A DNA stretch of 64,000 nt, taken from contig CAKOOR010000002.1 of the NCBI GenBank assembly GCA_934098505.1, positions 83,279 to 147,278 of the forward strand, in the 5' to 3' direction. Below the pieces are notes generated by a model, which was given only the letters and a program-made list of their open reading frames with translations, searched no databases and was not told where the DNA came from. Each line of letters opens with the position of its first letter. The first letter of the stretch is position 1. The translations under genes were made by a program, and so were the position numbers. Below, in pieces: positions 9,737 through 62,332 of this stretch. This DNA is from an uncultured Bacilli bacterium (GTDB taxonomy: Bacteria > Bacillota_I > Bacilli_A > RF39 > UBA660).

Positions 9737-9850
9737 CTATTTATTTATTCGCATATGCTCAATTTCTTCAATAGAAAGTCCAGTTATTTTGGATGTGGTT
9801 TCATTATCTAAACCTAGGTTAATGGCATTTTTAATCATTAATTTCTGGTC
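9737..9850 (-). pseudogene. C-terminal remnant of an Rpn/YhgA-like (Transposase_31, PD-(D/E)XK) recombination nuclease
   Basis: The 34-codon fragment ...IKNAINLGLDNETTSKITGLSIEEIEHM matches the C-terminal GL..EQI..TGLSIEEI signature of the intact Rpn gene at 56507-57442. It is preceded by an in-frame stop. Confidence 0.35.
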
Positions 9851-10004
9851 ATTATTTAGATGTAGTTAAAATTACTCTCTCTAATTATATTTATTGGCAA
9901 CAGAAGTCCAATTTCCTTCTTTTTTAAATAAATTTTTTCTAAAGATTACAAATTTCTTTTAATTTTGACTATCCTGACACAATTCTTATAAAACATACTA
10001 TTCT

Positions 10005-11015: not shown

Positions 11016-11216
11016 TTAAGACATAAAATCTGTTATAAAATTGGTTATTAAATAACTAGTAGCAATACCAAAGATGATAACTAACATTCTGGCTTCAATA
11101 GGTTTATTCCTTTTCATAAACTTATCAAAATTGATACCACTTAGGGCAACCATACTTAAAAGAAGATTAATTGCATATAACAGAGTTTTATAATTCATTA
11201 TATGATCCTTCTTCAT
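11016..11216 (-). CDS. small hydrophobic protein (uncertain)
   Basis: 66-aa ORF with two hydrophobic segments. It overlaps the rpiB 3' end by 29 nt and may be spurious. Confidence 0.25.
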   Translation of the reverse strand: MKKDHIMNYKTLLYAINLLLSMVALSGINFDKFMKRNKPIEARMLVIIFGIATSYLITNFITDFMS

Positions 11217-11637: not shown

Positions 11638-11666
11638 ATTTTTTCTTCTTTCTTTTTTTATATTTT

Positions 11667-12596: not shown

Positions 12597-12613
12597 TTAA
12601 TCAACTCCATCTT

Positions 12614-12650
12614 TATTATAGCAAAAAAACTGCAATTATGCAGTTTTTGT
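12614..12650 (-). terminator. rho-independent terminator of rpmE
   Basis: The hairpin ctgcaattatgcag is flanked by A7/T5 runs and overlaps the rpmE stop. Confidence 0.6.
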
Positions 12651-12879
12651 TTCGTCGTGATTAAAGCCGTATTTACGGTTGAATTTTTCTACTGAGCCAG
12701 TCTTCTTAGCACGAGCTTGTGAACCTGTATAGAATGGGTGGCAAGCACTACAAACATCACATTGGATACTGTCTTTAGTAGATTTTACTGTAAATGTATT
12801 TCCGCAAGCACAATGTACTTCTACTTCGTGCATTTCTGGATGAATTCCCTTTTTCATGATACTCTCCTTCCGCCATGTT
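12636..12879 (-). CDS. rpmE: 50S ribosomal protein L31 (Zn-binding type A)
   Basis: [19 protein letters not shown]...[13 protein letters not shown]. The RBS GGAGG precedes ATG 12879. The ORF-track start 12887 is an upstream extension. Confidence 0.85.
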
Positions 12880-13065
12880 ATATTCATAACATAGAAATTT
12901 GTTTGTCCTATGTATTATATCATAAGATTTTAGTTTTGCAATTATTAATAAGTTTATTTTTCCTGATTTTCAATAATTTTTTAATATTTAAATTAAATGA
13001 GCATTTACTATTTTCCATAAACTTAATGGTTATTAAAACATTTTATATTCTAAATAGCAAAAGTT

Positions 13066-13590: not shown

Positions 13591-13640
13591 AATTCCTCCT
13601 ATATAAAGTAATATTCTAATTTTTGTATGGTATATCAAAA

Positions 13641-14079
13641 GTTAATTTTACGGCTTGAGGTCGAGTTGAGTTTCTCTAAATATCTTCCACTTGATTACTC
13701 ATTGGCACTTTCGTCTTTAGGATATTTAATTAATATTTAATTCATTAATTACTCGATTGCCACTTAGTCCGCACTTCAATACTCTTAATATAGACAGTCT
13801 AGAGGTTTTCCCTGACATAAGTAACTATACTTATTCGCTTTTGCAAGCATTATTTCAACTTATAGTATTCCTAATACTCACGCACGACATACGTAACTTT
13901 GAAATGACGTAATGAAAGGATGTGGGTTATATGCCATTATAACTTTCCTTAGATTTTAAATCTTATATTCACCCTAACTTGGGCCGATAAAGCAAATATA
14001 AGAAGTGTCGGTAATGTAATTGATGGATTTTTAGCCCCATCTTCATATAGTGTTATGACTAGAATAATGCACCACACAT
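13641..14079 (-). ncRNA. candidate structured leader/ncRNA (~430 nt, ORF-free, GC-richer than surroundings) transcribed from consensus promoter
   Basis: No ORF on either strand. Local GC is elevated. It contains GGGUGAAU and GAUGGGGC segments faintly reminiscent of a c-di-AMP (ydaO) riboswitch. Identity unresolved. Confidence 0.3.
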
Positions 14080-14086
14080 AGCCGAG

Positions 14087-14115
14087 ATTATAACACAAGA
14101 TATTTCGTTTGTCAA
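14087..14115 (-). promoter_or_regulatory. consensus sigma-A promoter (TTGACA-17-TGtTATAAT) reading leftward
   Basis: Minus strand: TTGACA (14115-14110), a 17-bp spacer, then the extended -10 TGTTATAAT (14095-14087). All three elements are perfect matches. Confidence 0.7.
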
Positions 14116-42122: not shown

Positions 42123-42722
42123 TGTTTCACGTGAAACGTATAAACAAGTAATAAGTAAAATATAAAAACAATGTTTCACGTGAAACATTGTTTTTTTTGC
42201 ATAATTTTTTAATGTTTCACGTGAAACATTGACTGTTGATAAAATTTTATGGTTATTTGTTTTAAATAAAAGTTATTTTCAATGATATTTAGAATTAATT
42301 TTTTTAAATACTATTTAAAATTTATATGTTTCACGTGAAACATATAAAAAATGTTGATATTTATTATTTAAATAATAATAGGATAATAAAACTTTACAAC
42401 ATTATTTATATTAAAAAACTAATGTTTCACGTGAAACATTGTTATTAACAAGCATATTTGTATGATTAACGTTAAGCTGATTCAATGGCTTATTAAATAA
42501 TTAATAATCTTGCAATAAATATTTAATGCTTTTTGTTTAAAGTATTTTATACATTAAATTAATTTGGCAGCTAAAATTTATTTATATAAATAAATTATTT
42601 TTTGATTTAAGAAATAAATTTTAATTTAATCATTATTTTAATGTTTCACGTGAAACATTAAAATTTTGTTCATAATAAATAATTGCTAATTAATTATTTT
42701 TTATGATGTTTCACGTGAAACA
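42123..42722. repeat. array of seven parS centromere palindromes (TGTTTCACGTGAAACA)
   Basis: Six perfect 16-bp parS copies at 42172, 42213, 42327, 42423, 42642 and 42707, and a 15/16 copy at 42123. The flanks extend each palindrome to 18-26 bp. Confidence 0.85.
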
Positions 42723-42840
42723 TCATAAAAAAGTTATAAACAGTTTTGCTTGATAAAATATTTTTTATATTGAAGTAGTTATTTATAAAGGAAGGTTAAA
42801 ATTTTTGTTGTATCTTTGGAATTTTTATGGTAATATTAAG

Positions 42841-43389: not shown

Positions 43390-45030
43390 ATGGATTATCA
43401 AGTATTATATAGAAAATATAGACCTCATGATTTTGATTCTTTGGTAGGTCAGGAATATACGAAAAAATTATTAAAAAATAGCGTTATAAATAATAAGTTT
43501 GCTCATGCCTATATATTTACCGGGCCTAGAGGTACAGGTAAAACAAGTAGTGCTAAAATATTTGCTAAAGCTATTAATTGTTTACATCAGGTTGACGGAA
43601 ATCCATGCAATAAGTGTCAAAATTGTGTAAACTTTGAGAGCAGTCCGGATATAATTGAATTAGATGCTGCTTCTAATAATGGCGTAGATGATATAAGAGA
43701 GATAATAAATAATGTAAGACTAGCACCAAGTAGCATGAAAATTAAGGTTTATATTATTGACGAATTTCATATGTTATCCACAAGTGCTTTTAACGCATTA
43801 TTATTAACTTTAGAAGAGCCACCAAAAGATGTTGTATTTATTTTGGCAACTACTGATATTCAAAGTGTTCCGATAACTGTTTTATCCAGATGTCAAAGAT
43901 TTGATTTTAAACCAATTTCTATTCAAGATATTGAAGATAGATTGAAATATGTTTGTACTGAAGAAAAATTAAATGTTACGGATGAAGCTATTAAAGAAAT
44001 AGCAATGATGTCAAATGGTGGATTGAGAGATGCTTTAAGTATTTTAGATCAAGTAGCAAGTAATGGAGAAGAGATTACTGTTCAAGATGTAATTGCTAAT
44101 TTTGGAGGAGTATCAAATAAAAAGATAAATCAACTATTAGATTATTATGAAGCTAATAGTGTAAGTGAATTAATAGATTATATTAATGAGATTAAAAATG
44201 ATGGTATTGATATAAAAATTTTAATTGATAAATTGGTAACAAGAATTAAAAATGTATTAATAGATATTAAATTAGATAATTATAATGGGAAACTAGATTT
44301 TGATAATTTATATAACTTAGTTTTTGAATTAAATAAATTATTGACTAGTGAGAGAAATGGTGCTAATTATTATGATTTATTAGAAATTATATTTTTAAAG
44401 TATATAAATTATTTCCCGGGAAATAATTTTGTGGATAAAAAAACGACAAAGTTATCTGATCGTGAAAAAGAGTCAGCTGTAATCCAAAATGCGGAAGAAA
44501 GTCCAATAGTATCAGTACCTGCAGCAGAGCAACCAATTATTTCCCAAAAAAATCAATCTCAAGAAAAAAATAAAAATATTGACTTTGATGTAGATATTAG
44601 AATAAATAATACTTTTGTTAATGCTAAAAAAGAATTTTTAAATAATATAAAAAGCAAGTGGAATGATTTTGTTATCTATGAAAGTAATGCTAATAAAGCT
44701 ATGCTATCTTATTTAGCTGATACTAATATTGTTGCAGCTTCGAATAAATATGCGATATTGACTAATAATTTAGATATTACTAATGATTTAATTAATCAAA
44801 ATATTAAAACATTAGAAAAAGATTTTAATTTATTTTTTAATGGTAATTATTGTTTAGCGGCTATATCGCCAAAAAAATGGGAACAAGAACGAAATAAATA
44901 CATAAATAATATCAAAAATGGATATAAATATGAGATAATAGATAATGATATAATTATTAAAGAAGATAAAAGTGAATTAGAAAAGATTGCTAAGGAAATC
45001 TTTGGCAATAATTATAAGAAAGTAGAATAA
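43390..45030 (+). CDS. dnaX: DNA polymerase III subunits gamma/tau
   Basis: GPRGTGKTS Walker A and the Zn module CNKCQNC. Confidence 0.9.
   Translation: MDYQVLYRKYRPHDFDSLVGQEYTKKLLKNSVINNKFAHAYIFTGPRGTGKTSSAKIFAKAINCLHQVDGNPCNKCQNCVNFESSPDIIELDAASNNGVDDIREIINNVRLAPSSMKIKVYIIDEFHMLSTSAFNALLLTLEEPPKDVVFILATTDIQSVPITVLSRCQRFDFKPISIQDIEDRLKYVCTEEKLNVTDEAIKEIAMMSNGGLRDALSILDQVASNGEEITVQDVIANFGGVSNKKINQLLDYYEANSVSELIDYINEIKNDGIDIKILIDKLVTRIKNVLIDIKLDNYNGKLDFDNLYNLVFELNKLLTSERNGANYYDLLEIIFLKYINYFPGNNFVDKKTTKLSDREKESAVIQNAEESPIVSVPAAEQPIISQKNQSQEKNKNIDFDVDIRINNTFVNAKKEFLNNIKSKWNDFVIYESNANKAMLSYLADTNIVAASNKYAILTNNLDITNDLINQNIKTLEKDFNLFFNGNYCLAAISPKKWEQERNKYINNIKNGYKYEIIDNDIIIKEDKSELEKIAKEIFGNNYKKVE
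44406..44441. repeat. 36-bp module: Noc-binding-site palindrome TTATTTCCCGGGAAATAA + DnaA box TGTGGATAA, inside dnaX
   Basis: AAATTATTTCCCGGGAAATAATTTTGTGGATAAAAA is identical to the 46850-46885 copy. Confidence 0.7.
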
Positions 45031-46180: not shown

Positions 46181-46999
46181 ATGAGTAGTTTAAAAATGAT
46201 ACAAAATTTAATTAATAAATATGAGACTGGAAGACTATCTCATGCTTTTTTAGTTGAAACAAATAATATAGATCTATGTTTAAATGATATTAAATTATTT
46301 GTAAAATATATTAATTGTTCACATAAATATAATGAGAATTGCAATGAATGTAATTTGTGCAAGCTAATAGATTTGAATAATTTACCAAGTTTAACTATTA
46401 TTGAACCAGATGGTATGAGTATTAAGAAAAATCAATTGCAAGAATTGCAAGATAAATATAGTATGAAACCTGTATATTCAAAATATAATACTTATATTAT
46501 TTTAAATGCTGAATTGATGAACGCTTCATCTGCTAATAGTATACTTAAATTTTTAGAAGAACCAACTGACCATATAATTGGATTTTTAATAACTACTAAT
46601 AAAGAAAAAATGCTAGATACAATAATTAGTAGATGTCAAAATGTAAAGTTTATTTATAAGGATACAAATGAAAATAATGAAAATATTAAATTAATCGCAA
46701 CAGAGTATTTAGATCAAATAGAAAATGATAATTCATTTTTAATAAATAAAACATTGATTTTGAGTACATTGACAACTAGATATGATATAAATAATTTGTT
46801 TATTGAAATTTTGTATCAATTAATGAAAAAAATTAGAGAAAATTATTTCCCGGGAAATAATTTTGTGGATAAAAATCTAAATAAATATAATATGCAAATT
46901 GAAATCGTTCGAAAAGTTTTAATCATGATTAAACAAAATGTTAATTTAGAATTATTATTAGATTACTTTGTTATAGAGATGAGGAAATTAAATGAATGA
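46181..46999 (+). CDS. holB: DNA polymerase III delta' subunit
   Basis: AAA+-like with a cysteine module CNECNLCK. Positioned before yaaT. Confidence 0.7.
   Translation: MSSLKMIQNLINKYETGRLSHAFLVETNNIDLCLNDIKLFVKYINCSHKYNENCNECNLCKLIDLNNLPSLTIIEPDGMSIKKNQLQELQDKYSMKPVYSKYNTYIILNAELMNASSANSILKFLEEPTDHIIGFLITTNKEKMLDTIISRCQNVKFIYKDTNENNENIKLIATEYLDQIENDNSFLINKTLILSTLTTRYDINNLFIEILYQLMKKIRENYFPGNNFVDKNLNKYNMQIEIVRKVLIMIKQNVNLELLLDYFVIEMRKLNE
46850..46885. repeat. second copy of 36-bp NBS+DnaA-box module, inside holB
   Basis: Identical 36 bp. It encodes YFPGNNFVDK in the same frame as in dnaX. Confidence 0.7.
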
Positions 47000-48477: not shown

Positions 48478-49029
48478 ATGAAATTAATTGTTGGATTAGG
48501 AAATCCTGGTAAGGAATATGAAAATACAAGACATAACATTGGTTTTATGGTACTAAATTATTTTTCGGGAAATAATTTGTGGAAAGAAAAATTTAACGGT
48601 ATGTATTGTCAACAAAATGTAAAGGGAGAAAAAGTTATATTTTTAAAGCCACTTACTTATATGAATTTATCTGGTAGTTGTGTAATTAAATATGTTAAGT
48701 ATTTTGATATTAAAATAGATGACATTTTAATAATTCAAGATGACTTAGATTTACCTTATATGCAGTATCGCTTAAAATATGATAGTTCAGCAGGTGGTCA
48801 CAATGGAATTAAATCAATTATTAATAATTTAGGAACGCAAAAAATACCAAGATTAAAAATAGGTATAGCTCATGATCGTAGTATAGATACTAAGGATTAT
48901 GTGCTGGGACATTTTAATAAAGAAGATTTAATTTTGTTTGAAGAAAAAACTAAAATATTCAATAATATTATAAATGATTTTATTTCCCAAGATATTAATT
49001 ATTGTATGGCAAATTATAATAGAAAATAG
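48478..49029 (+). CDS. pth: peptidyl-tRNA hydrolase
   Basis: MKLIVGLGNPGKEYENTRHNIGF and AGGHNGIKS. Confidence 0.9.
   Translation: MKLIVGLGNPGKEYENTRHNIGFMVLNYFSGNNLWKEKFNGMYCQQNVKGEKVIFLKPLTYMNLSGSCVIKYVKYFDIKIDDILIIQDDLDLPYMQYRLKYDSSAGGHNGIKSIINNLGTQKIPRLKIGIAHDRSIDTKDYVLGHFNKEDLILFEEKTKIFNNIINDFISQDINYCMANYNRK
48555..48590. repeat. degenerate third copy of NBS-like module inside pth
   Basis: AAATTATTTTTCGGGAAATAATTTGTGGAAAGAAAA, in-frame as NYFSGNNLWKEK. Confidence 0.45.
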
Positions 49030-49042
49030 ATAGGTAATTGTT

Positions 49043-52000
49043 ATGGACTTTTTAAATAATTATTTTAAATATCAAAATAAGATTGAAATAGTTGGTTTAA
49101 CTTCTGAGTTGAACATTTTTTGCATACTTAATTATTTTCAAAAAATAAATAAAAGTATTTTGGTTTTAACTAATACTTTATATGAGGCTAATAAGTACTT
49201 TGATTCTATATCAACTTTCACAGATGATTGTTTATTATTTCCAATGGATGATTTTGTAGCTTCTGTAGCTTTAGCAATATCTCCAGAGCTAAAAATTAAA
49301 AGACTAGAAACTATTAATATTTTGAAAGAAAATAATCATAAAATAATTGTTACTAATTTAATGGGATTTTTGAGATATCTTCCAGATCATAAAACGGCAA
49401 GTAAATTAGAATTTAAGTTAGAAACAGGAATGTCTATTAATCGAGATAAAATTTTAGAAGTTTTAGATTCTTTTGGCTATAAACGAGATACATTGGTAAC
49501 ATCAACAGGTGAGTATGCCGTTAGAGGTTATGTTATTGATTTGTTTTTAATAGAACAAGAACACCCTATAAGAATTGAATTCTTTGGTAATGAAATTGAA
49601 TCTATTCGTTTTTTTGATGAAAATACGCAGATGTCAATTAAAGAAGTAAAGGAAATAATTTGTCTTCCTTATCAAGAAATTGCCACTTCAACAAAAAGTT
49701 CAATTCTCGATTATTTAGATACACCGACAGTATTTGAAATTGACAAAGAAGATATAGACTTAGGATATGAAAAATTATCTGAGGAAATTTTAGCATATAA
49801 AAAAGAAAATAATATTGATAAAGATTTAATGTTTAGATTAGAAGATATTAATATAAAGAATGTTATATACCTTAATAAATTTGTAATTAATAGAAGTTGT
49901 GCTATTGTTTATCAAAGTAATACTTTAGATAACTTTAATTCTAACTTTCAATTATTACGAGAATTTGTAAATAAAAAATTAACAGATAAAAAGACAGTTA
50001 TTTTTTGCTTGTCTAGAAAAGCTGAGATTGATTTTATTAAAGAAATGTTTCATGTAACTAGAGTAGTTGATGAAGAACATTTATTTATAGAAAAAGTTAA
50101 TATTTTAAACAAGAAAATTAATAATGGTTTTGAATTTGATAAATTTGTGGTTATTGGTGAATACGATATTGAGAAAATAAACACCAGAGAAATTAAATAT
50201 AAGAATAGTTATAAAATTGGTAAAAAGATAAGGGGTTTTGATCAATTACAAGTTGGAGATTATGTTGTTCACACTATTCATGGTATTGGACAATACCAAG
50301 GAGTTATTTCATTAACCAAAAATGGTGTAGTGAAAGATTATTTACAAATTATATACGCTGATAATGATAAAATTTATGTTCCAGTTGAAAAGATTAGTAC
50401 TATTTTTAAATATTCATCAAAAGATGGAGTTGCTCCTGTTTTAAGCAAATTAAATGGGACGGCTTGGGCAAAGACTAAAAAGGCTTTACAGAAGAAGATT
50501 CACGATATTTCATTGGAACTTATTAAATTATATGCTGCTCGTAGTAAAGTCACAGGACCAGTTTTTATAGATGATCCAATGGATGTAATGTTTGATGCTG
50601 ATTTTAAATATGAACCAACAATTGATCAGCAAAAAGCTTTTTTTGATGTAAAAAAAGACTTAGAAAATAAAGTACCAATGGATCGCTTATTGTGTGGTGA
50701 TGTTGGTTTCGGTAAAACAGAAGTGGCTTTCCGAGCTATGTTTATGACTGCGATTAATGGTTTCCAAGTAGCTTATTTGTGTCCAACAACTATATTAAGT
50801 AATCAACAATATGAAAATGCTTTACAAAGATTTAAGAACTTCCCAGTAGAAATTGCTTTATTAAACCGATTTACAACTAAAAAAGAAGCTGAACGGATTA
50901 TTGCTGGTTTAAAAAATGGAACAATCGATATTGTTTTTGGTACCCATCGTTTGTTGAGTGATGATGTTGGTTATAAAAATTTAGGTTTATTAGTAGTTGA
51001 TGAAGAACAAAGATTTGGTGTAACACATAAAGAAAAAATCAAAAAGTATAAGAATGATGTTAATGTGTTAACTTTATCAGCAACACCAATTCCAAGAACT
51101 TTAAAGATGGCTATGTCTGGTTTACGAGATTTATCAATAATTGATACAGCGCCGGTAAATAGATATCCAGTTCAAACTTATGTTATAAAAGAACAAGATA
51201 TGGTGGTTAAAGATGCTATTTATAAAGAATTAGGACGTAATGGTCAAATTTTTGTTTTGTATAATCGAATTGATAGTATTGAAAGTAAGAAAAATGAATT
51301 ACAACGTTTAGTACCAGAAGCAAGAATAGTAATTGCCCATGGTCGGATGAATAAATCTCAAATGGAAGATGTAATGCAAGATTTTATTGATCATAAATAT
51401 GATATTTTATTGTGTACTACGATTATTGAAACAGGAATCGATATAGCAAATGCTAATACATTAATAATTTATGATGCTGATCGTTTTGGCTTAAGTCAGT
51501 TGTATCAGATTAGAGGGCGGGTTGGTAGAAGTTCTAAAATTGCTTATGCTTACCTTATGTATAGTAAAGATAAAATGCTAAATGAAATTGCTGTTAAACG
51601 ATTAGAGGCTATTAAAGAATTTACAGAATTAGGAAGCGGCTACCGAATTGCCATGCGAGATTTGTCGTTGCGCGGTGCTGGTGATATTTTAGGAAGCGAC
51701 CAAGCGGGATTTGTCGATGCAGTTGGCTTAGATTTATATATGAAAATGGTTGATGATGAAGTTAAACGACTTAATGGTGAAGAACCAGTAGAGGATAAAT
51801 CGAATAATTCTTTAATTGATGTTGATACCCATATTAGTGATTCTTATGTATCTGATGAATCATTAAAAATTGAAATCCATCAAAAAATTAATAAAATTGA
51901 TAGTTTTGATAAATTAATAGAAATTCAAAAAGAATTAGAAGATCGTTTTGGTAAAATTAATGATCAAATTAAAGTATATATGTATGAAGAATGGTTTGAA

Positions 52001-52279
52001 AAATTAGCCTTGTCTTTAAATATAGAAAGAGTTGTTCAAAATAATAAAATTGTTGAATTAGAAATACCAGCATCACTTACTAAGACGCTTAAATTTGATA
52101 AATTGTTTATGCAGATTTATAATATTTGTCCAAAAGTACAATTTAGATCAATGCTTAATAATGTTTATATAACTTTACCTATAGCTAATTTACCTAAGCA
52201 TTTTGTTTATTATTTAGTTGATATTTTAAACTTGATAAAAGACGAAGTAAATAAAGAAGAAGAGATTAACGATAATTAA
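49043..52279 (+). CDS. mfd: transcription-repair coupling factor
   Basis: 1078 aa. A CarD-like RID, a DEAD/DEAH helicase (GDVGFGKTEV, DEEQRFGV), and a TRG motif. Confidence 0.9.
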   Translation: MDFLNNYFKYQNKIEIVGLTSELNIFCILNYFQKINKSILVLTNTLYEANKYFDSISTFTDDCLLFPMDDFVASVALAISPELKIKRLETINILKENNHKIIVTNLMGFLRYLPDHKTASKLEFKLETGMSINRDKILEVLDSFGYKRDTLVTSTGEYAVRGYVIDLFLIEQEHPIRIEFFGNEIESIRFFDENTQMSIKEVKEIICLPYQEIATSTKSSILDYLDTPTVFEIDKEDIDLGYEKLSEEILAYKKENNIDKDLMFRLEDINIKNVIYLNKFVINRSCAIVYQSNTLDNFNSNFQLLREFVNKKLTDKKTVIFCLSRKAEIDFIKEMFHVTRVVDEEHLFIEKVNILNKKINNGFEFDKFVVIGEYDIEKINTREIKYKNSYKIGKKIRGFDQLQVGDYVVHTIHGIGQYQGVISLTKNGVVKDYLQIIYADNDKIYVPVEKISTIFKYSSKDGVAPVLSKLNGTAWAKTKKALQKKIHDISLELIKLYAARSKVTGPVFIDDPMDVMFDADFKYEPTIDQQKAFFDVKKDLENKVPMDRLLCGDVGFGKTEVAFRAMFMTAINGFQVAYLCPTTILSNQQYENALQRFKNFPVEIALLNRFTTKKEAERIIAGLKNGTIDIVFGTHRLLSDDVGYKNLGLLVVDEEQRFGVTHKEKIKKYKNDVNVLTLSATPIPRTLKMAMSGLRDLSIIDTAPVNRYPVQTYVIKEQDMVVKDAIYKELGRNGQIFVLYNRIDSIESKKNELQRLVPEARIVIAHGRMNKSQMEDVMQDFIDHKYDILLCTTIIETGIDIANANTLIIYDADRFGLSQLYQIRGRVGRSSKIAYAYLMYSKDKMLNEIAVKRLEAIKEFTELGSGYRIAMRDLSLRGAGDILGSDQAGFVDAVGLDLYMKMVDDEVKRLNGEEPVEDKSNNSLIDVDTHISDSYVSDESLKIEIHQKINKIDSFDKLIEIQKELEDRFGKINDQIKVYMYEEWFEKLALSLNIERVVQNNKIVELEIPASLTKTLKFDKLFMQIYNICPKVQFRSMLNNVYITLPIANLPKHFVYYLVDILNLIKDEVNKEEEINDN

Positions 52280-52469
52280 ATTTGTTAAAAGATTTTATTG
52301 TAGTGATTATAAATGTCGATATTGAATGTATAAATTTATGAGAGTAATTTCTTGTAAAAAGATTATATTTGATATAGACATTTTTTTACATATTAGAAAC
52401 TTTATTGCATAACTTTTGTGTATCTTTTTAATTTTTATGGTAAAATTAAATCATAATAGGAGGTAAGAT

Positions 52470-54809
52470 ATGGCTAATAGAATGGTTCTTAATGAAACTT
52501 CTTATTTTGGCTGGAATGCTAGAGAAAATTTAGTATCAGAAATCAAAAAAAGAAATTTCAAAAGAATATTAGTTGTAAGTGATGAAAATTTAGTTAAATG
52601 TGGGGTAACTGGTAAAGTAACTGAATTGTTGGATAATGCTAAGATAAAGTATAGTGTCTTCGATAAAGTTAAACCTAATCCAACAATTAGTAATTGTCAT
52701 GATGGGATAAGGGCTGCTAAGAAATTTCATGCTGATAGTTTAATTGCTGTTGGTGGTGGAAGTGTTATTGATACGGCTAAATGTATTGGTATCGTCATTA
52801 ATAATAGAGAATTTTATGATATAAATTCTTTAGAAGGTGTTGCAGATACTAAGAATAAGTCGTTACCTATAATTGCTTTACCAACAACCGCTGGTACGGC
52901 GGCAGAGGTAACAATTAATTATGTAATTACAGATGAAATTGGGAAAGTTAAAAGAGTTTGTGTAGATACAAATGACATTCCTGTTTTAGCAATAATTGAT
53001 ACAGAATTAATGAGTAAAATGCCTAAAATGACGGCTGCTGCCACAGGGTTAGATGCACTAACTCATGCGATGGAAGGATATATTACGAAGGCTCATTGGG
53101 AAATTCCCGATATGTTCCATTTACAAAGTATGGGAATGACTTATAAAAATTTAGTAAAGTCCGTTAATAAAGAACGAGATGCTCAAGAACAAATGGCAAT
53201 GAGTGAATATATTGCGGGTATGGGATTTTCTAATGTCGGACTTGGGATTGTTCATTCCATGGCTCACCAATTAGGGGCAACTTATGATATTGCTCATGGT
53301 ATTGCTTGTAGTTTATTTTTACCATATGTTTTAGAGTGGAATGGAGAAGTTGCTTATGATAGATATCGTAAGATGGCAGAAAGTTTTGGTTTAACAACAA
53401 CTGGCAAAACTGATAAACAATGTGTAGAACTTGTTGTTAGAGCAGTTCGTGATTTAGAAAAGACTTTAAAAGTACCAATGACTTTAAAAGAATTAAATGT
53501 AAGTCCAGATAGTTTTGAAGAAATGGCTGCTAAGGCTTTAATTGATCCTTGTACGGGTGGTAATCCACGAGAAGTTACAAAGGAAGATATTATTGAACTA
53601 TTTAATAGAGCTTATGAAGGAAAAGGAGTTAGTAAAAACATGAGAACTAAAGTTGGTTATAGTGAAAATGTAGATGCTTATACAAGTGGTGTTGAAACTG
53701 CTAAAATGGCTAATAAAATAGAGAATCCACAAGTTGGTTTATTATTTACCAGTTGTGTTCAAGATCAAAAAGAAATCATGAAAGGTATTAAGAGTGTCTT
53801 AAAAGATATAGACATTGTTGGTTGTACTTCTAGTGCTGCTATATGTACTCAAGATGGTTATTTAAATAAACCTACTGGTTATTCTGGGATGATGTTATTA
53901 GGTGGTGGTGCTAAGGTTGTTGCCGCTGGTTCGCCAAAGACTAATGATGATGCTAGAAGTATTGGTCGTAAATTAGCAACTAAGGCTGTTAAAGAGGCTA
54001 ATTGTATTGAAAAACCAAGTTATGTATTTGTAAGTGCTTCACCAAAAGAAGAAGAAGAATACTTAAAAGGTATTGCTGATGTAATTGGTGATGTTCCAGT
54101 ATTTGGTGGTAGTGCTGCTGATAATACAGTTGAAGGTAAATGGAGTTTACTATATAATGGTGAGGCTTTTGCTGATGGTTGTGTTATGGCTTTAATTTAT
54201 GCTGATACTGAGATTAAAAACTTGTATACAGGTAATTATATAGAAACTAATGACGCTGGTTTAATTACCGAAGTTAAAGATAAAAGAACATTAGTATCTA
54301 TTAATGGAAAACCTGCATTAGATGTTTATGCTGATTGGACTGGTAAAAAGATAGAAGACATGATGGGTAATAATTTATTAACAGAAACAATCTTCAATCC
54401 ACTTGGAGTAAAAGATCAAATTGGTAATGTTACGGCTGTTAGACATCCGATGTTTGCTAATGTTGATAAATCAATGAATATTGGGGCTAATTTAGAAGAA
54501 AATACGGCTATTATTCATTTAACTAATACCCCAGAAGGTATGTTAGATAGTAATGCTTGTGTAGTTAAGAAATTAAATGATTTAATGGATAATACACCAG
54601 AAAGTTATTTCCTTGTTCACTGTGGTGGTCGTCGTTTAGGACTTCAATTAACTAATATGGAAGATAAAATTTATCCAGCTATTAAGAAGGCAATTCCTAA
54701 AAAAGAATTCTTAATGGTATTTACCTTTGGTGAATATGGTAGATGTGAACATTCTAGTAATATTGTTGGTGGTTTATCTCTATCATTTACTGGATTTGGA
54801 AAGGAATAA
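52470..54809 (+). CDS. iron-containing alcohol dehydrogenase fused to an uncharacterised ~390-aa C-terminal domain (possibly FIST-like sensor fold)
   Basis: The N-terminal half carries Fe-ADH motifs (GGGSVIDTAK, the His cluster HAMEGY...HSMAHQLG). The C-terminal half has no ALDH or ADH motifs and ends FTFGEYG...HSSN. Confidence 0.6.
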   Translation: MANRMVLNETSYFGWNARENLVSEIKKRNFKRILVVSDENLVKCGVTGKVTELLDNAKIKYSVFDKVKPNPTISNCHDGIRAAKKFHADSLIAVGGGSVIDTAKCIGIVINNREFYDINSLEGVADTKNKSLPIIALPTTAGTAAEVTINYVITDEIGKVKRVCVDTNDIPVLAIIDTELMSKMPKMTAAATGLDALTHAMEGYITKAHWEIPDMFHLQSMGMTYKNLVKSVNKERDAQEQMAMSEYIAGMGFSNVGLGIVHSMAHQLGATYDIAHGIACSLFLPYVLEWNGEVAYDRYRKMAESFGLTTTGKTDKQCVELVVRAVRDLEKTLKVPMTLKELNVSPDSFEEMAAKALIDPCTGGNPREVTKEDIIELFNRAYEGKGVSKNMRTKVGYSENVDAYTSGVETAKMANKIENPQVGLLFTSCVQDQKEIMKGIKSVLKDIDIVGCTSSAAICTQDGYLNKPTGYSGMMLLGGGAKVVAAGSPKTNDDARSIGRKLATKAVKEANCIEKPSYVFVSASPKEEEEYLKGIADVIGDVPVFGGSAADNTVEGKWSLLYNGEAFADGCVMALIYADTEIKNLYTGNYIETNDAGLITEVKDKRTLVSINGKPALDVYADWTGKKIEDMMGNNLLTETIFNPLGVKDQIGNVTAVRHPMFANVDKSMNIGANLEENTAIIHLTNTPEGMLDSNACVVKKLNDLMDNTPESYFLVHCGGRRLGLQLTNMEDKIYPAIKKAIPKKEFLMVFTFGEYGRCEHSSNIVGGLSLSFTGFGKE

Positions 54810-54812
54810 AAA

Positions 54813-56249
54813 ATGGCAAAGAATTTAATTGGGGCAAGTTGGTGTGATGCGAGTAACGGGGAAGTAATTGAGATTACTAACCCTGCTACTAATGCACTAA
54901 TCGATACAGTACCAAAAAGTACAAAAGAAGACTGCGACAAGGCAGTTGAAGCGGCTTTTGAGGCACAAAAAGAATGGGCTAAAGTGCCTTTACATGAAAG
55001 AGCAAGTCGTTTAATGAAGTTTGTTTCTTTAGTAGAAAGAGATAAAGATAGTTTAGCAAAATTATTATGCGAAGAAACTGGTAAACCAATTAGTGAAGCA
55101 ATAGGAGAAATTGCCAATGTTGCTATTGGGATTCCAGCATTCTGTGAAAGAGCAAAACATGAATATGGAAAAGTAATTCCTTATGGTCAAGAAAAAGGTA
55201 ATGAGGCTACTTTACAATATACAGTACAGGCTCCTTTAGGAGTAGTTGTTGCGGTAATTCCGTTTAATTTCCCTAGTGACTTATTCTGTCAAAAAGTTCC
55301 TGCAGCTTTATTAATGGGAAATAGTGTTATTTTAAAACCAAGTGCTCATAATCCTTTAACTTTAACTAAGTATGTGGAGTTATTAATTGAGGCTGGTATT
55401 CCTGGGGGAGCAATTAATTTAATCAATGGCGCTGGTGGCGAGGCTGTTCAAAATTTAGCTGAGAATTCTAAAGTGGCGTTAGTAAGTCTTACTGGTTCTA
55501 CTTTGGCTGGAGCGGAAACAATGGCTAAATGTGCTAAAAATATTACTCATGTTATGTTAGAATTGGGAGGAAATGATGCTTTCATTCTTCATAAAGATGG
55601 TGATGTTGATTTAGCAGTTAAAGAAACTATCTGGGGTCGTCTATATAATACTGGTCAAGTTTGCTGTGCTTCTAAGCGTTTCTTAGTTCATAAAGATGTT
55701 TTAGACGAATTTGTTAATAAATTAACAGAAACTTTCAAAGGCATTAAGGTTTGTATGCCTAGTAATCCTAATGCTAAAATTGGTTGTTTAATTAGTGAAG
55801 ATGCTGCTAAAAAGGTAGAAGAACAAGTTAATTCTACTGTTGAATTGGGCGCTAAGGTTGTTTATGGTGGTCGTCGTAAAGGGGCTTTCTATGAACCAAC
55901 TATTTTAACTGATGTTACCCGTGATATGCCTGTTGCTAAAGATATGGAGATCTTTGGACCTGTTGTTTCTATTATTAGTTATGATACTATTGAAGAAGCA
56001 ATCGAGATTGCTAATCAATCAAGTTTTGGTTTATGTGGATGTATTATTTCTAAAGATCAAAAAGTATGTCAAAAAGTTGCTAATGAACTTGAATGCGGTG
56101 GGGTAATTATTAATGGTGCTTCTTTCTTCCGTTCATTTGAAATGCCATTTGGTGGCTGGAAACATTCTGGTTATGGTAATGAAGGCGTTGCTAGTACTCT
56201 TCATGAAATGAGTAGAACTAAAACTGTTATTTTAAAAAATATACTTTAA
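54813..56249 (+). CDS. NAD(P)-dependent aldehyde dehydrogenase
   Basis: ELGGNDAF, the catalytic Cys in GQVCCASKR, 478 aa. Confidence 0.85.
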   Translation: MAKNLIGASWCDASNGEVIEITNPATNALIDTVPKSTKEDCDKAVEAAFEAQKEWAKVPLHERASRLMKFVSLVERDKDSLAKLLCEETGKPISEAIGEIANVAIGIPAFCERAKHEYGKVIPYGQEKGNEATLQYTVQAPLGVVVAVIPFNFPSDLFCQKVPAALLMGNSVILKPSAHNPLTLTKYVELLIEAGIPGGAINLINGAGGEAVQNLAENSKVALVSLTGSTLAGAETMAKCAKNITHVMLELGGNDAFILHKDGDVDLAVKETIWGRLYNTGQVCCASKRFLVHKDVLDEFVNKLTETFKGIKVCMPSNPNAKIGCLISEDAAKKVEEQVNSTVELGAKVVYGGRRKGAFYEPTILTDVTRDMPVAKDMEIFGPVVSIISYDTIEEAIEIANQSSFGLCGCIISKDQKVCQKVANELECGGVIINGASFFRSFEMPFGGWKHSGYGNEGVASTLHEMSRTKTVILKNIL

Positions 56250-56271
56250 AAATATGAAGATATTATTGTTT

Positions 56272-56298
56272 GTTAAGACGATAATGTCTTTTTTATTT
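56272..56298 (+). terminator. rho-independent terminator after ALDH
   Basis: aagacgataatgtctt followed by TTTTTT. Confidence 0.6.
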
Positions 56299-56506
56299 TG
56301 CTTTAATATTTACAAAAATGTCAAATTATCGTCAAATTTTATAAAAAAATGTAATTTTTAGTAAAAATTTTAAAAAAAAAGAAGGAAATTAGACTTCACT
56401 TACCAATATATATAATTAGGAGGGTAAATAATATCCTTCTTAAGAAAAGGAGGTGAATTTATGAGAAATTTTGCCAAAAACAATATGGAAAAGGAAGTGA
56501 TGATCA

Positions 56507-57442
56507 ATGAAAAGCAAGAAAGAAATAGAAAGAACTTTAAAAGAAAATAAAGGCGCCGATTTTGTTTTACCTATGACTTGGGATGTAATGTTCGAGCAAA
56601 TGTTCATTTCTGAAGAAGCCATGCCTTTACTTGAATGTATTATTTCAATATTTGGCAATGTCGATATTAAAGATGTTAAGGGTAAAGTTAGGTTACTACC
56701 AAATGAATTAAAACAAACATCGGCAAAAGATACGAGAAGTAAAAGTGATATAATTGCTGATTATTTTAAAGATGAAAAAAATATTGATAAGTATATTGTG
56801 GAAATGAATTCATCAAAAAAGATGCCTTGGCGTAATGTTTTCTATGCTTATATAGTAGCAGGCGGTGGTATTTCTATTAATGATGATAAATATGTTAAGG
56901 CTTACGACACTATCTTAATTGATTTTAACACATTTGCTGATGATGAAAATGATTTGGTAGAAATGATTACTATGCGTTACAAAACTGGTAAAATCTTTGA
57001 TGATAGTACTAAAATATTCGAAGTAAATATGGCAAAAGCAAAAGATACGAGTTATAATTATGTCGATAAACAAGAAGAACAAGTAGCCATAATTAGTAGA
57101 ATGTTTATGACTACCAGTTCACTTGAATTGGATAAGGAGTCAGATAAACTTATGAGTAAAAAAGATACGGAAAAATTAGTTAGTCGTGCCAAGGAATTAT
57201 CGAGTGATGATGGTTATATTAGACTTTTTGATAAAGAAGAAAATTATAAGGAGCTGATTCGTAATACCGAGTTAGCAGAAGCTCGTGAGGAAGGAAAGTT
57301 AGAAGGCATGAAATTAGGCTCTAAAGAAGCAAAAATAGATGTTGCTAAAAGTCTTATTAAAATAGGATTAACCAATGAGCAAATTGTCGAAGCCACAAAG
57401 ATTTCAATTGAAGAAATCAATATATTAAGAAAAGAAGTTTAA
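56507..57442 (+). CDS. Rpn/YhgA-like recombination-promoting nuclease / putative transposase (Transposase_31, PD-(D/E)XK)
   Basis: C-terminal AEAREEGKLEGMKLG...IKIGLTNEQIVEATKISIEEINIL, the signature tail of this family. 311 aa. Confidence 0.6.
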   Translation: MKSKKEIERTLKENKGADFVLPMTWDVMFEQMFISEEAMPLLECIISIFGNVDIKDVKGKVRLLPNELKQTSAKDTRSKSDIIADYFKDEKNIDKYIVEMNSSKKMPWRNVFYAYIVAGGGISINDDKYVKAYDTILIDFNTFADDENDLVEMITMRYKTGKIFDDSTKIFEVNMAKAKDTSYNYVDKQEEQVAIISRMFMTTSSLELDKESDKLMSKKDTEKLVSRAKELSSDDGYIRLFDKEENYKELIRNTELAEAREEGKLEGMKLGSKEAKIDVAKSLIKIGLTNEQIVEATKISIEEINILRKEV

Positions 57443-57589
57443 AGTAATAAATATTATTATAGAAAATATTTTAATTGAAAAGTGTAGTCATGTGGCTATG
57501 CTTTTTATAAATATTTATAATATGTACTAAAAAATAAAAAAATATAGTGCTAGTCATTATATCTAAAGCGATTATGACATCTATATTTT

Positions 57590-57770
57590 TAGTTTAGGCG
57601 TATGGCCTGGTAGGTTATCTGTTTCCAATCTAAATTAGATTACGATTAATCGTTGCCGCTTTTATAAATGTCCGTAGGCATTTATCCTAAGTTCATAGCA
57701 TTTAGCAGGAATCTGGCCGAACCCCGTCAAGGAAAAAGAAACAGACGGCGAGGAAGCCCTAAAATTATAT
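57590..57770. ncRNA. candidate structured ncRNA (GC-rich ~180-nt island without ORF; 6S-like size)
   Basis: Its GC content is well above the flanking intergenic DNA. The 5' CUGUUUCC and 3' GGAAAAAGAAACAG segments could pair. No motif confirms an identity. Confidence 0.25.
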
Positions 57771-57849
57771 TGATAACTGGTATCTTTAATTTTAAAGTAG
57801 ATAATTGTTTTTTATTGAAAATAATTGGTAAAAAAATTAAATAATTATA

Positions 57850-58281
57850 TTACACAATTTTAATTAAATCCAAATCTGTTTGTTTATTTTCTACAAGAAC
57901 ATTAAGATTGCTAATTATCCAATTGGGAGATCTTAATTCGTCTTTCATTTTTAGTATTTCTTCATAGCTAAACCATTTTACATCTAATATTTCTGACTTA
58001 TTTATATTTATATTTTCTTCTAATAATTTTGTTGAAAAGAGTATGCCTATCCAAATACCGTTTTCTAAAATTTTGTTGCAAACTTTTAGAACCCCAGTTA
58101 GTTCAACTTTACATCCTGTTTCTTCAAAAATTTCCCTTTTAGCTCCATCAAAAATACTTTCCTTTGGTTCGAGATGACCTGCGGGAATATTCCATTTTCC
58201 ACGACATATTTCTTTAGCTTCTTGTACTAGTAAAAATTTGCCATCTTTTTCTATAAAACCGCCAACAATAATTGAGTTCAT
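57850..58281 (-). CDS. NUDIX hydrolase
   Basis: The Nudix box GHLEPKESIFDGAKREIFEETG. Confidence 0.8.
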   Translation of the reverse strand: MNSIIVGGFIEKDGKFLLVQEAKEICRGKWNIPAGHLEPKESIFDGAKREIFEETGCKVELTGVLKVCNKILENGIWIGILFSTKLLEENININKSEILDVKWFSYEEILKMKDELRSPNWIISNLNVLVENKQTDLDLIKIV

Positions 58282-58284
58282 ATA

Positions 58285-59514
58285 TTAATTTCCTTTCCTA
58301 ATTGTGTGTTTAATTTTCTTTAAAATATTAAACAAGGTATTAACAGGACTTAAAGATAATTCATAAGCACCAAGAAGTTCTTCGACATAGCCGCCGAAGC
58401 CTTTTTTAAATTCGTAAACACCACGGTCTTTACCATTAGGATTAAATACATCTTGAATACCAAAGAAGTTATATCTCTTATAATTATGGTCTGCAGCATA
58501 TTTAATTATTTCCCATTGTAGGCGATATTGACCACAAAACTGCATATACTCGGCATAAGAACCACTAAATAAATAAATGATTTCATCACCATATAATATG
58601 AACATAGCAGCTGATAAAGGAATAATTTCGCCTTTTTCTTGCCTTAAATTTTTCGCCTCTTGTATCTTTTTATTATTATTTTCAATATCTTTTTTCATGA
58701 CTTCTTTTTTCTTTAAGTTAGAATTAGAATCAGATAACTCTTCTAATTTAGAAGTCATTTCTTTATTAGAATCTTCTAATTTTTGAATATAATTCTTTAG
58801 ATTAATTTCACATATTTTAAAAGTTACATCATCTTTAAAACAATCATACATTTCTTCATAATATTTTAAAGATTTATCGGAAAATGATCTACGATCACAA
58901 GTATCACTGGTAATAGTTTTAAATTCTTTTAATTCATCTTTAGATAGTGTTCTAATATTTAAATCATATTTAGTTAAAGTTTTATTAATATTATTACGAG
59001 TACTACTACGAAAATCATTAAATAATTCTTTACTAGTTTTACCATTAATATCAAGACAATAAGTCCATTTAACTTGGCTACTTTGGGAATCTTTATAACC
59101 TAAAGTGTGTAGATAATCTATAATATCTCGGTTATCAAATTCATCAGTAATTTCCGCTTCCATATTACGAGAAACAGCAGGTATATAAGGGTCAATTATT
59201 AATTTTAAGCCATTTCTTTCTTTTAGAAAGTTCTTAACACCATCAGTCATAAATCTAAGTAATTCTTTATTATGATAATCAAGAATAAAGCCTTTATAAG
59301 CCTCATATGTTATTTTACCTAAGAATTTTTGTGGGGTTTCGGCGATAAGACTGGCTGCAATAACTTTGCTATTTTCTTTAACTCCTACTAAATAAACCTT
59401 TGTTCCATCACATTCTAATTTCTTTTTCATCATTACAGTTTGAAAGAAATTTTTATTATTTTGTGTATCGACAAAATTTTGAAATTCCTGTTCTGTTAGT
59501 TCTGTAAATTTCAT
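58285..59514 (-). CDS. FemAB-family peptidoglycan aminoacyltransferase
   Basis: The N-terminus MKFTELTEQEFQNFVD...FFQTV parallels S. aureus FemA (MKFTNLTAKEFGAF...FTQTV). A central coiled-coil insertion is present. Confidence 0.65.
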   Translation of the reverse strand: MKFTELTEQEFQNFVDTQNNKNFFQTVMMKKKLECDGTKVYLVGVKENSKVIAASLIAETPQKFLGKITYEAYKGFILDYHNKELLRFMTDGVKNFLKERNGLKLIIDPYIPAVSRNMEAEITDEFDNRDIIDYLHTLGYKDSQSSQVKWTYCLDINGKTSKELFNDFRSSTRNNINKTLTKYDLNIRTLSKDELKEFKTITSDTCDRRSFSDKSLKYYEEMYDCFKDDVTFKICEINLKNYIQKLEDSNKEMTSKLEELSDSNSNLKKKEVMKKDIENNNKKIQEAKNLRQEKGEIIPLSAAMFILYGDEIIYLFSGSYAEYMQFCGQYRLQWEIIKYAADHNYKRYNFFGIQDVFNPNGKDRGVYEFKKGFGGYVEELLGAYELSLSPVNTLFNILKKIKHTIRKGN

Positions 59515-59597
59515 TGTATCACCCATTTATAAGTATAAACTAAAATTATAATATTTAATAGTTAAAAAGAAATAAATCTAATAAAAAGATACTTTTT

Positions 59598-59630
59598 AGG
59601 GAGTGGCGGGTGGGAAGAAATAATAAGATT
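59598..59630 (+). repeat. G-rich dispersed repeat copy C, overlapping the -35 region upstream of the AbrB/SpoVT-family gene
   Basis: AGGGAGTGGCGGGTGGGAAGAAATAATAAGATT. An extended -10 TGTTATAAA lies at 59647-59655. Confidence 0.7.
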
Positions 59631-59693
59631 ATAAATAAAAAAATAATGTTATAAATTTTAAAAAAAAGACAATAATAAACTTAGAGGTAAGAT

Positions 59694-60161
59694 ATGAACG
59701 GACAAATAAAAAGAATTGATGAATTAGGACGCATTGTAATTCCTAAAGATATAAGAAAAAGGCTTTCCATTAAGACTAATGATACTCTGGAAATAGGGAT
59801 GGATGGCGATAAAATAGTTTTAAACAAAAGAATAGCTATCAAAGAGTATAATGATTATGTTAAGACTTTACTAACTATTTTAACTAATTATAGTGGGATT
59901 AAGTTTTTAGCGACTAATCGGGAAGATATTATTTTTAATAATACGGATATAGTTGGTTTTGAGGTTAAGAAGTATATTAATATGTCTTTATATGAAATGG
60001 ATAAGGTTAAGGATGAGATATGTAGTGGTTGTGATATAAGACCGGTTATTATTGATAGTAATGTGGAAGGGATTATTTTAGTTATAAATAGTGAATGTAA
60101 TAAAGAAATTGGGAAAATTATTAATATTTTAGTTACTTCTAAACTTGATATTTCATGTTAA
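59694..60161 (+). CDS. AbrB/SpoVT-family transcriptional regulator (SpoVT-like: swapped-hairpin N-domain + C-terminal domain)
   Basis: IKRIDELGRIVIPKDIRKRLSIKTNDTLEI is the AbrB-N domain. 155 aa with a C-domain resembling SpoVT. It is upstream of metG, like abrB in B. subtilis. Confidence 0.6.
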   Translation: MNGQIKRIDELGRIVIPKDIRKRLSIKTNDTLEIGMDGDKIVLNKRIAIKEYNDYVKTLLTILTNYSGIKFLATNREDIIFNNTDIVGFEVKKYINMSLYEMDKVKDEICSGCDIRPVIIDSNVEGIILVINSECNKEIGKIINILVTSKLDISC

Positions 60162-62300: not shown

Positions 62301-62332
62301 ATGGAGTGGTGGGTGGGAAGTAATCAATAATT
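62301..62332 (+). repeat. G-rich dispersed repeat copy D upstream of metG T-box promoter
   Basis: ATGGAGTGGTGGGTGGGAAGTAATCAATAATT. TGcTATACT lies at 62375-62383. Confidence 0.7.

Follow-up and report, generated by a model that had tools for sequence, protein, structure and literature searches.

A conserved alcohol dehydrogenase, FIST and aldehyde dehydrogenase gene module of gut Bacilli, fused in one clade, and the hypervariable slot beside it

Background

In Escherichia coli, FucO (lactaldehyde reductase/propanediol oxidoreductase) and AldA (lactaldehyde/glycolaldehyde dehydrogenase) act at the lactaldehyde/glycolaldehyde branch point. Relatives of both enzymes are encoded, together with a FIST protein, in a 64,000-nucleotide stretch of DNA (hereafter the window) from an uncultured Bacilli bacterium of the RF39 lineage (assembly GCA_934098505.1, contig CAKOOR010000002.1, positions 83,279 to 147,278), where they occupy the left part of the interval between mfd and a spoVT-like gene. 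FIST domains are widespread, and the only roles characterised for them are those of NosP, in the sensing of nitric oxide (NO)/haem, and of FBXO22, in recognising the substrates of a human E3 ligase; the FIST fold of FBXO22 is threefold pseudo-symmetric (bioRxiv 10.1101/2024.06.03.596960).

The mfd/spoVT-like interval holds two unrelated things: a conserved, previously undescribed module of alcohol dehydrogenase (ADH), FIST and aldehyde dehydrogenase (ALDH) genes, the first two of which are fused here, and a hypervariable slot. In the literature searched, no paper was found that connects FIST with alcohol, aldehyde or lactaldehyde dehydrogenases. Described below is a large, very conserved FIST subfamily that is tied to dehydrogenases by gene order and, in one clade, also by fusion; it is found in abundant gut Bacilli, most of them uncultured.

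The fusion gene and its origin

The conserved module and its left flank comprise the following, the letters aa and nt standing for amino acids and nucleotides and ORF for open reading frame:

49043..52279 (+): mfd, transcription-repair coupling factor, the left flank (Pfam UvrB_inter, CarD_TRCF_RID, DEAD, Helicase_C and TRCF)
52470..54809 (+): 779-aa fusion ORF, Fe-ADH and ADH_Fe_C, then FIST_N and FIST_C
52470..53615 (+): FucO-type iron ADH half, residues 1-382 (Pfam Fe-ADH and ADH_Fe_C; NF007911)
53616..53639 (+): fusion junction, the former stop codon (now GAA, E383) and the 21-nt former spacer
53640..54809 (+): FIST half, residues 391-779 (Pfam FIST_N and FIST_C)
54813..56249 (+): NAD-dependent ALDH, AldA/lactaldehyde-dehydrogenase-like, beginning 3 nt after the stop of the fusion gene (Pfam Aldedh)

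An earlier annotation made from the letters of this DNA (the first-pass annotation) had recognised an iron-containing ADH in the N-terminal half of the 779-aa protein, had guessed tentatively at a FIST-like fold for a C-terminal half in which it saw no ALDH character, and had placed a separate ALDH gene behind it. Pfam agrees on every count, finding Fe-ADH at residues 11-178 (E 1e-46) and ADH_Fe_C at 190-382 (4e-57), followed by FIST_N at 421-614 (3e-27) and FIST_C at 616-758 (1e-15), and Aldedh in the gene that follows; the C-terminal half is not ALDH-like.

Between the two halves the window reads gcttatGAA-ggaaaaggagttagtaaaaac-ATG, where the split relative L006 (L-numbers designate the individual loci compared) reads gcttatTAA-tataaaaaggaggttatttaa-ATG; the 21-nt spacer of the split relatives holds AAGGAGG. 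The length of the spacer is unchanged in the fused gene, in which it is translated as the linker E-GKGVSKN, and the AAAGGAG ahead of the ATG at 53640 is retained. Comparison of the two junctions shows that the fusion arose by loss of a single stop codon (TAA to GAA), the spacer thereby becoming the linker. In other fused relatives the position of the former stop is occupied by E, Y or D, and in the more distant of them the old start methionine has become leucine, which points to a single old event in the ancestor of the clade. Since the AAAGGAG and its ATG have been kept, separate translation of a free FIST protein could still take place. A sequencing artefact was considered as the source of the fusion and rejected, the identical open junction being found in 11 independent assemblies.

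The fusion is rare and is restricted to this clade: among 5.8 billion proteins searched, full-length fusions form only three clusters (at the 90% level), with 92, 87 and 82% identity, and there are fragments in addition. The nearest public genomes, as judged by the fusion protein, are metagenome-assembled genomes of uncultured gut Bacilli from Hadza samples (99%) and "Mycoplasma sp. CAG:956" (97%).

The 36 nt directly upstream of the fusion gene (52414-52449) are 86% identical to 42804-42839, a segment that overlaps the start of the signal recognition particle (SRP) RNA gene (TTTTGTGTATCTTTTTAATTTTTATGGTAAAATTAA); this likeness may reflect a shared type of promoter. A scan of the window for promoters and terminators was uninformative in such AT-rich DNA, with 43 promoter-like sites against 40.6 expected.

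The cassette in other species

A scan of species-representative genomes found more than 550 stretches that encode a relative, and the best 80 of them (at least 50% identity) were classified by script; these are the closest relatives, and the census describes this FIST subfamily only. An ALDH gene lies immediately 3' of the FIST gene in 74 of the 76 loci with sufficient downstream DNA, and an Fe-ADH gene lies 5' of it in 38. Separate ADH, FIST and ALDH genes in that order make up 29 loci and an ADH::FIST fusion followed by ALDH seven; 20 have the order FIST, ALDH and short-chain dehydrogenase/reductase (SDR), here termed the type-b cassette, and 18 have FIST and ALDH with no adjoining ADH or SDR, the upstream DNA being too short to judge in four. 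L005 and L006 are examples of the split form, with consecutive genes for an Fe-ADH of 381 aa, a FIST protein of 392 aa and an ALDH of 478 aa, and L010 of the order FIST, ALDH, SDR; the split trio is also carried by L026, from Coprobacillus sp. CAG:605. When the ORFs flanking all 80 loci were clustered, no recurrent neighbour was found besides ADH, ALDH and SDR, and no regulator or transporter.

Across genera, the FIST proteins are 66-72% identical and the ADH proteins 71-75%. Among remoter members of the FIST family, one at 41% identity is followed by an Fe-ADH, one at 47% is preceded by an Fe-ADH and one at 49% is followed by an ALDH; members at 35-37% have no dehydrogenase neighbour. The cassette adjoins mfd in seven of the 80 species loci and does not in the other 73, so that placement next to mfd is a trait specific to the clade.

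The FIST protein: family, fold and conserved residues

Against Pfam, the FIST half scores 96.3 bits for FIST_N and 58.2 bits for FIST_C, the gathering cut-offs being 23.2 and 28.5. A search with this half gave 3608 matches of up to 72% identity, and stand-alone FIST proteins of 389-392 aa number in the thousands at 66-72%; an exhaustive profile-free search gave 87, 631 and 1692 representative clusters at E < 1e-30, 1e-10 and 1e-3, respectively. One 852-aa FIST protein (P0372), considered as a possible FIST::ALDH fusion, proved to be FIST_N joined to a peptidoglycan-binding domain.

A sequence search of solved structures with the FIST half gave no match. An AlphaFold2 (AF2) model of this half, built from 62 diverse homologues, has a predicted local distance difference test score (pLDDT) of 96.8, and its top four matches in the PDB are all the FIST domain of FBXO22 (8ua6 and 8s7e among them), with E from 2e-11 to 2e-8 and a template modelling (TM) score of about 0.5. 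The matches that come next, to Toblerone-fold cyclic amide hydrolases and chorismatases, are weak (TM 0.35-0.39, root-mean-square deviation about 11 Å). Positions E143/E144, GGS..D166, H274, C333 and E370 are conserved family-wide, and to these the dehydrogenase-linked subfamily adds C67, R273, H332, R336 and H376.

The two dehydrogenases

The ADH half reaches 158.8 bits against Fe-ADH and 193.6 bits against ADH_Fe_C, with cut-offs of 31.3 and 27. Among the NCBIfam models for lactaldehyde reductase, the fused ADH lies barely above the cut-off of NF007911 (537.8 against 537) and below that of TIGR02638 (509.4 against 523.15); the stand-alone ADH of L006 is above both, at 557.9 and 529.8. The NAD motif GGGSVIDTAK is intact, and the pattern D194/H198/H262/H276, taken by analogy with E. 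coli FucO to be the metal ligands, has FucO-like spacing.

The ALDH is matched by Pfam Aldedh at 5e-148 (493.8 bits) and has the catalytic motifs LELGGN and GQVCCA, with their Glu and Cys. Its best NCBIfam models are both below cut-off, namely lactaldehyde dehydrogenase NF040648 (409.5 against 650) and PRK10090 (377.8 against 500). Lactaldehyde or glycolaldehyde as substrate is offered as a lead, not as a result.

The mfd/spoVT-like interval in relatives

At the mfd site, 11 clade relatives were compared (L001-L004 and L012-L018, 82-99% identity), and in all 11 of them mfd is followed at the same site by ADH::FIST and then by ALDH. The mfd of the relatives is 77-96% identical and lies immediately 5' of the fusion gene; the spoVT-like protein at the other end is 67-99% identical among them. 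The slot between the ALDH and spoVT-like genes, 56258-59526, is the sole portion of the block that varies. Its features and those of the right flank are:

56258..57504 (+): strain-specific Rpn segment, the rpn gene flanked by an upstream region of its own and by hairpins downstream, in the position held in sister genomes by the core of a diversity-generating retroelement (DGR)
56507..57442 (+): divergent Rpn-family gene (recombination-promoting nuclease/toxin-antitoxin-type), 311 aa (TIGR01784)
57505..57833 (-): DGR relic (the "GC-rich island"), DNA that adjoins avd on its upstream side in sister genomes
57850..58281 (-): NUDIX hydrolase, variable cargo (Pfam NUDIX, 5e-21)
58285..59526 (-): FemAB-family peptidyltransferase, variable cargo (Pfam FemAB, 7e-99)
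59600..59617 (+): copy of a G-rich motif upstream of the spoVT-like gene, part of the conserved right flank
59694..60161 (+): AbrB-family SpoVT-like regulator, the right flank (Pfam MazE_antitoxin/AbrB N-terminal domain)

The Rpn gene, the DGR relic, the NUDIX gene and the FemAB gene are each missing at the site in some close relatives. The slot is empty in L016 and L017, where ALDH leads straight to the spoVT-like gene; it holds other genes in L004, a DGR in L001, L018 and L094, the NUDIX and FemAB genes (placed correctly by the first-pass annotation, to judge from Pfam) in L012 and L014, and FemAB alone in L013. Neither NUDIX nor FemAB is present in L001, and L094 has an 81-bp 5' fragment of FemAB.

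The GC-rich island that the same annotation had noticed is real: 57580-57760 is free of ORFs and has 40.9% GC, against 12-19% in the neighbouring non-coding DNA. A 21-mer scan of metagenomes located it in two related gut contigs. The larger segment 57505-57833 is 87-90% identical to L001 17381-17722, L018 12719-13060 and L094 2248-2589, all of which adjoin the genes for Avd and reverse transcriptase (RT), and it is matched in L095 as well; homology to the DGR-bearing relatives starts at its left edge, 57505. On the minus strand it retains two conserved ends of the DGR template repeat/variable repeat (TR/VR) unit, GGGCTTCCTCGCCG and ACGGGGTTCGGCCAGATTCC, at 57707-57727 and 57746-57759, both of which are contained in the TR of L001, and it is to these retained ends that the high GC of the island is attributed. 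The window was found to lack RT and Avd as well as a target gene and a complete TR. From these alignments the island is judged to be a DGR relic and not a working element. A structured RNA was also considered for it and rejected, there being no Rfam match, either at the gathering threshold or at E up to 10, and folding z-scores of +0.68 and -0.53 on the two strands against shuffles.

The intact DGRs in the slot of the sister genomes (L001 13895-17722, L018 ~10969-13060, L094 360-2589) have the order DUF6273-type target with VR, then TR, RT and bAvd, and inverted copies of part of the flank upstream of avd are located 3' of RT, so that they bracket avd-RT. In the core of the L001 TR-VR alignment the mismatches fall at TR adenines; the whole alignment has 21 mismatches at A and 10 at T, the latter mainly in the flanks, which is also where most of the G and C mismatches are. 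Exact matches of 22-25 nt to a DGR repeat end (GGCCGAACCCCGT...) were found in three high-GC soil metagenome contigs (L092, L093 and L096), and suggest that across phyla the ends of DGR template and variable repeats may be conserved in nucleotide sequence. If the matching segments of those contigs fall in DGR repeat ends as well, the retained ends in the island would account for the matches.

The DNA from 56258 to about 57845 stands where L012 and L014 have a 140-bp intergenic region. From the DGR relic in the window and the 81-bp FemAB fragment in L094, it follows that the slot probably once held both a DGR and NUDIX-FemAB. The ancestral content would thus have included a DGR with NUDIX and FemAB, and in this strain the DGR core would have been lost and the Rpn-family segment (56258-57504) have taken its place, leaving a relic of 330 nt. 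The slot offers a compact case of a DGR, an Rpn defence gene and cell-wall/housekeeping accessory genes swapping at one site.

The G-rich motif, GGAGTGGYGGGTGGGAAG, of which the first-pass annotation had named copies A and C, has three copies in the window (10006-10023, 59600-59617 and 62303-62320), and none is expected in shuffled sequence. All three are on the plus strand with a conserved AT-rich tail; their placement relative to genes is inconsistent. In L001, L012, L013, L094 and L095, too, the motif precedes the spoVT-like gene, whatever the cargo, and the copy at 59600 is therefore not the end of an element, which is what the first-pass annotation had made of it. Nor is the name spoVT, which it had given to the flanking gene, retained here: the protein scores 50.4 bits against the SpoVT model TIGR02851, the equivalog cut-off being 235.9, and its AbrB-type N-terminal domain alone is clearly matched.

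The Rpn-family gene and its remnant

The Rpn segment is absent from the 99%-identical L012 and L014, and no Rpn match was found in the 91 loci screened; among the relatives compared, the gene is restricted to this strain. TIGR01784 matches the protein from end to end at 41.8 bits, below its cut-off of 52.1, and 21 of 21 members of the Rpn-like family are likewise matched over their whole length (best E 9e-14). There is no Pfam match (the family in question being Transposase_31), and a sequence search of solved structures with this protein gave none. The earlier call of an Rpn-type gene is upheld.

The family has 206 lineage-specific homologues, at 76-96% identity. Its members carry from zero to four units of a 4-aa repeat (GKLE, GMKL, GVKQ and similar) in the C-terminal helix and are 303, 307, 311 or 315 aa long; a varying number of 4-aa repeats in this helix is a reported hallmark of the Rpn/RpnS toxin-antitoxin defence genes (PMC10400941). 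An internal AAGGAG-N12-ATG is located at the invariant Met216, 47 residues ahead of the repeats. D81 is invariant and E99 nearly so, and the invariant M100-N101 that follows could make this a motif of the D...ExK/Q type in which N replaces K/Q. The 311-aa protein is best described as a divergent member of the Rpn family and a putative nuclease. A second copy lies elsewhere in the window:

9737..9972 (-): second, internally deleted rpn copy, with upstream region and 33-aa C-terminal ORF

This remnant had been detected at first pass at 9.7-10.0 kb, and both of its parts can be recognised: 9881-9972 is an inverted 92-nt repeat, 80% identical, of the rpn upstream region 56328-56419, and the ORF at 9737-9838 (-), MIKNAINLGLDNETTSKITGLSIEEIEHMRINK, corresponds to the last 33 codons. 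Its tail matches the C-terminal tail of P0539 and P0541, a different paralogue type from that of the intact copy. Some E. coli rpn genes have small genes downstream (PMC10400941), and the truncated copy could encode a stand-alone RpnS-like small protein.

Proposed role of the FIST protein and alternative explanations

Taken jointly, these observations are best explained, with a confidence somewhat above even, by a clade-fixed ADH-FIST-ALDH module, in which FIST is a partner of the dehydrogenases, together with a hypervariable slot. In most gut Bacilli ADH, FIST and ALDH are encoded by separate, tightly spaced genes; in the ancestor of the clade, mutation of the ADH stop codon turned the 21-nt spacer into a linker and gave a single ADH::FIST polypeptide. 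From this fusion and the near-universal adjacency of FIST and ALDH we infer that FIST works in physical contact with the dehydrogenases, most likely as a ligand-binding partner. Its pseudo-threefold fold would bind a small molecule (a metabolite, a metal or a redox cofactor), and through the contact FIST would tune the partition of a reactive hydroxy-aldehyde, for example lactaldehyde or glycolaldehyde, between diol formation by reduction and acid formation by oxidation.

Several observations weigh against such a role. The 18 loci that have FIST and ALDH without an adjacent ADH or SDR, together with the 20 type-b cassettes in which the reductase is an SDR, mean that contact with Fe-ADH cannot be the whole story. 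FIST is about as conserved as the enzymes and has many invariant polar residues (C67, R273, H274, H332, C333, R336, E370, H376), so that a catalytic or cofactor-binding protein fits at least as well as a regulator does. The AF2 model of the full-length fusion is poor in the FIST half (pLDDT 30-70, predicted TM score 0.54), probably because of the weak alignment that half-length sequences provide, and it carries no docking information. The substrate assignment comes from family models only, with the ALDH under every equivalog cut-off, and the proposed succession in the slot, with loss of the DGR and gain of Rpn, is a parsimony reading.

One possibility, which we entertain only tentatively, is that FIST itself has a catalytic or cofactor-handling part in the pathway, the fusion then being a simple enzyme-enzyme fusion for channelling; FIST might make, isomerise or hydrate the aldehyde on which ALDH acts by oxidation and ADH or SDR by reduction, or its task might be the loading or repair of a metal or cofactor. 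Such a protein would be expected to look much as this one does, conserved to the same degree as the enzymes flanking it, rich in invariant Cys, His, Arg and Glu in its dehydrogenase-linked form and with no output or DNA-binding domain, lying always within a metabolic operon near which regulators and transporters do not recur; moreover, the structural matches that follow FBXO22 are to pseudo-threefold enzymes. Those matches are the weak ones, however, and H274, C333, E143/E144 and E370, being family-wide, occur also in FIST proteins that have no dehydrogenase neighbour, while the characterised FIST proteins, NosP (PMC12570481) and FBXO22, are all binding or sensing modules. It seems unlikely, on the other hand, that the FIST half is itself a NosP-like haem-based sensor of NO or haem, switching the dehydrogenase under nitrosative or redox stress in the gut. 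The idea draws on NosP, the one bacterial FIST protein to have been characterised, which as a stand-alone sensor controls an adjacently encoded partner (PMC12570481), but the neighbours found in NosP operons, a histidine kinase and a cyclic di-GMP response regulator (PMC12570481), do not recur in the 80 loci. The NCBIfam NosP model (NF041558) does match weakly across the whole FIST half (E 1e-21), yet at 77.1 bits against a cut-off of 450, and by this measure the cassette FIST is not a NosP orthologue. Haem synthesis, too, is usually lacking in small-genome gut Bacilli.

The remaining alternative concerns the block as a whole, which the first-pass annotation had read as a 7.4-kb accessory insertion: it could be a single, recently acquired genomic island. 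The GC content of the fusion gene (32.7%) and of ALDH (35.3%) does exceed the gene mean of 27.9%, a gene of the Rpn family is accompanied by the DGR relic and by dispersed repeats, and other genera carry the cassette at other genomic sites. The GC excess, however, is confined to codon positions 1 and 2, and at the third position (GC3) the fusion gene, with 15.5%, and ALDH, with 17.1%, are close to the window mean of 18.0%; the GC3 z-scores of the genes of the block range from -0.8 to +1.4, so that GC3 in the block is host-like and the higher GC that had been remarked on does not support an acquired block. This host-like GC3, together with the finding that every one of the 11 clade relatives, down to 82% identity, has fusion and ALDH at this same site, indicates that the two genes were not recently acquired. 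Neither a tRNA nor an integrase was found in the window, nor were flanking direct repeats; the G-rich motif is part of the conserved flank, and in the right part several events are layered on one another. A single recent acquisition is therefore highly improbable. The term accessory is appropriate to the variable right part; the left 3.8 kb are shared by the clade relatives at the same site and are not accessory there.

A wider, and distinctly speculative, proposal is that this FIST subfamily is an integral third component of a widespread aldehyde-handling module of gut bacteria, and not a signalling sensor. If that were true, either the pseudo-threefold FIST fold may here have given rise to a new enzyme or, for the first time, a FIST protein would be seen to control metabolic enzymes directly, and the natural ADH::FIST fusion would be a Rosetta-stone clue to the partner of FIST. 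The tie to the dehydrogenases by gene order and fusion supplies a concrete, testable partner and a candidate chemistry, that of lactaldehyde or glycolaldehyde derived from fucose, rhamnose or diol metabolism.

Other features of the window

The window has 28% GC and contains dnaA, dnaN, gyrB and gyrA as well as the SRP RNA and an ornate large extremophilic (OLE) RNA. The last, at 13611-14091 (-) with 202 bits, is here seen in a lineage of small-genome gut Bacilli. Between gyrA and the SRP RNA gene, 0.7 kb of non-coding DNA hold seven copies of the palindrome TTTCACGTGAAA within longer repeats (42125-42720), and these copies resemble an array of operators or binding sites. A 36-nt segment, AAATTATTTCCCGGGAAATAATTTTGTGGATAAAAA, which encodes NYFPGNNFVDK, is repeated inside three genes, 100% identical within the dnaX-like and holB-like genes and 78% within pth; the likeness spans old paralogues and an unrelated gene. 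Its copies are:

44406-44441: within the dnaX-like gene
46840-46875: within the holB-like gene
48555-48590: within pth

Comparison with known systems

With the known Rpn genes, the gene in the slot shares the end-to-end match to TIGR01784, the variation in repeat number, the multicopy state and the presence in the window of a truncated C-terminal copy; it differs in falling under the NCBIfam cut-off and in having no Pfam match. In those rpn genes that contain an intragenic RpnS (PMC5350276, PMC10400941), moreover, the internal start lies 8-20 residues before the repeats, compared with 47 for the candidate Met216. The DGR relic corresponds to the avd-proximal flank of the intact sister DGRs, complete with the ends of the TR/VR unit.

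The cassette FIST resembles NosP in its architecture of FIST_N plus FIST_C, in being typically a stand-alone protein of about 390 aa with no output domain, and in having its partner encoded alongside (PMC12570481); unlike NosP, it has dehydrogenases for partners and not a histidine kinase. From FBXO22, to which it is nearest in structure, it is separated by a sequence identity of about 11%, and there the fold serves protein recognition in a eukaryotic E3 ligase. The closest parallels for the enzymes of the module are E. coli FucO, whose equivalog models match the ADH half and its split homologues from end to end, and AldA, the cassette ALDH being nearest to the lactaldehyde dehydrogenase and PRK10090 models. 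In 20 loci an SDR stands in for the Fe-ADH, in contrast to FucO; and, in contrast to both E. coli enzymes, their counterparts here belong to one operon, with a FIST protein encoded between the two genes or, as in the clade of this strain, fused to the ADH.

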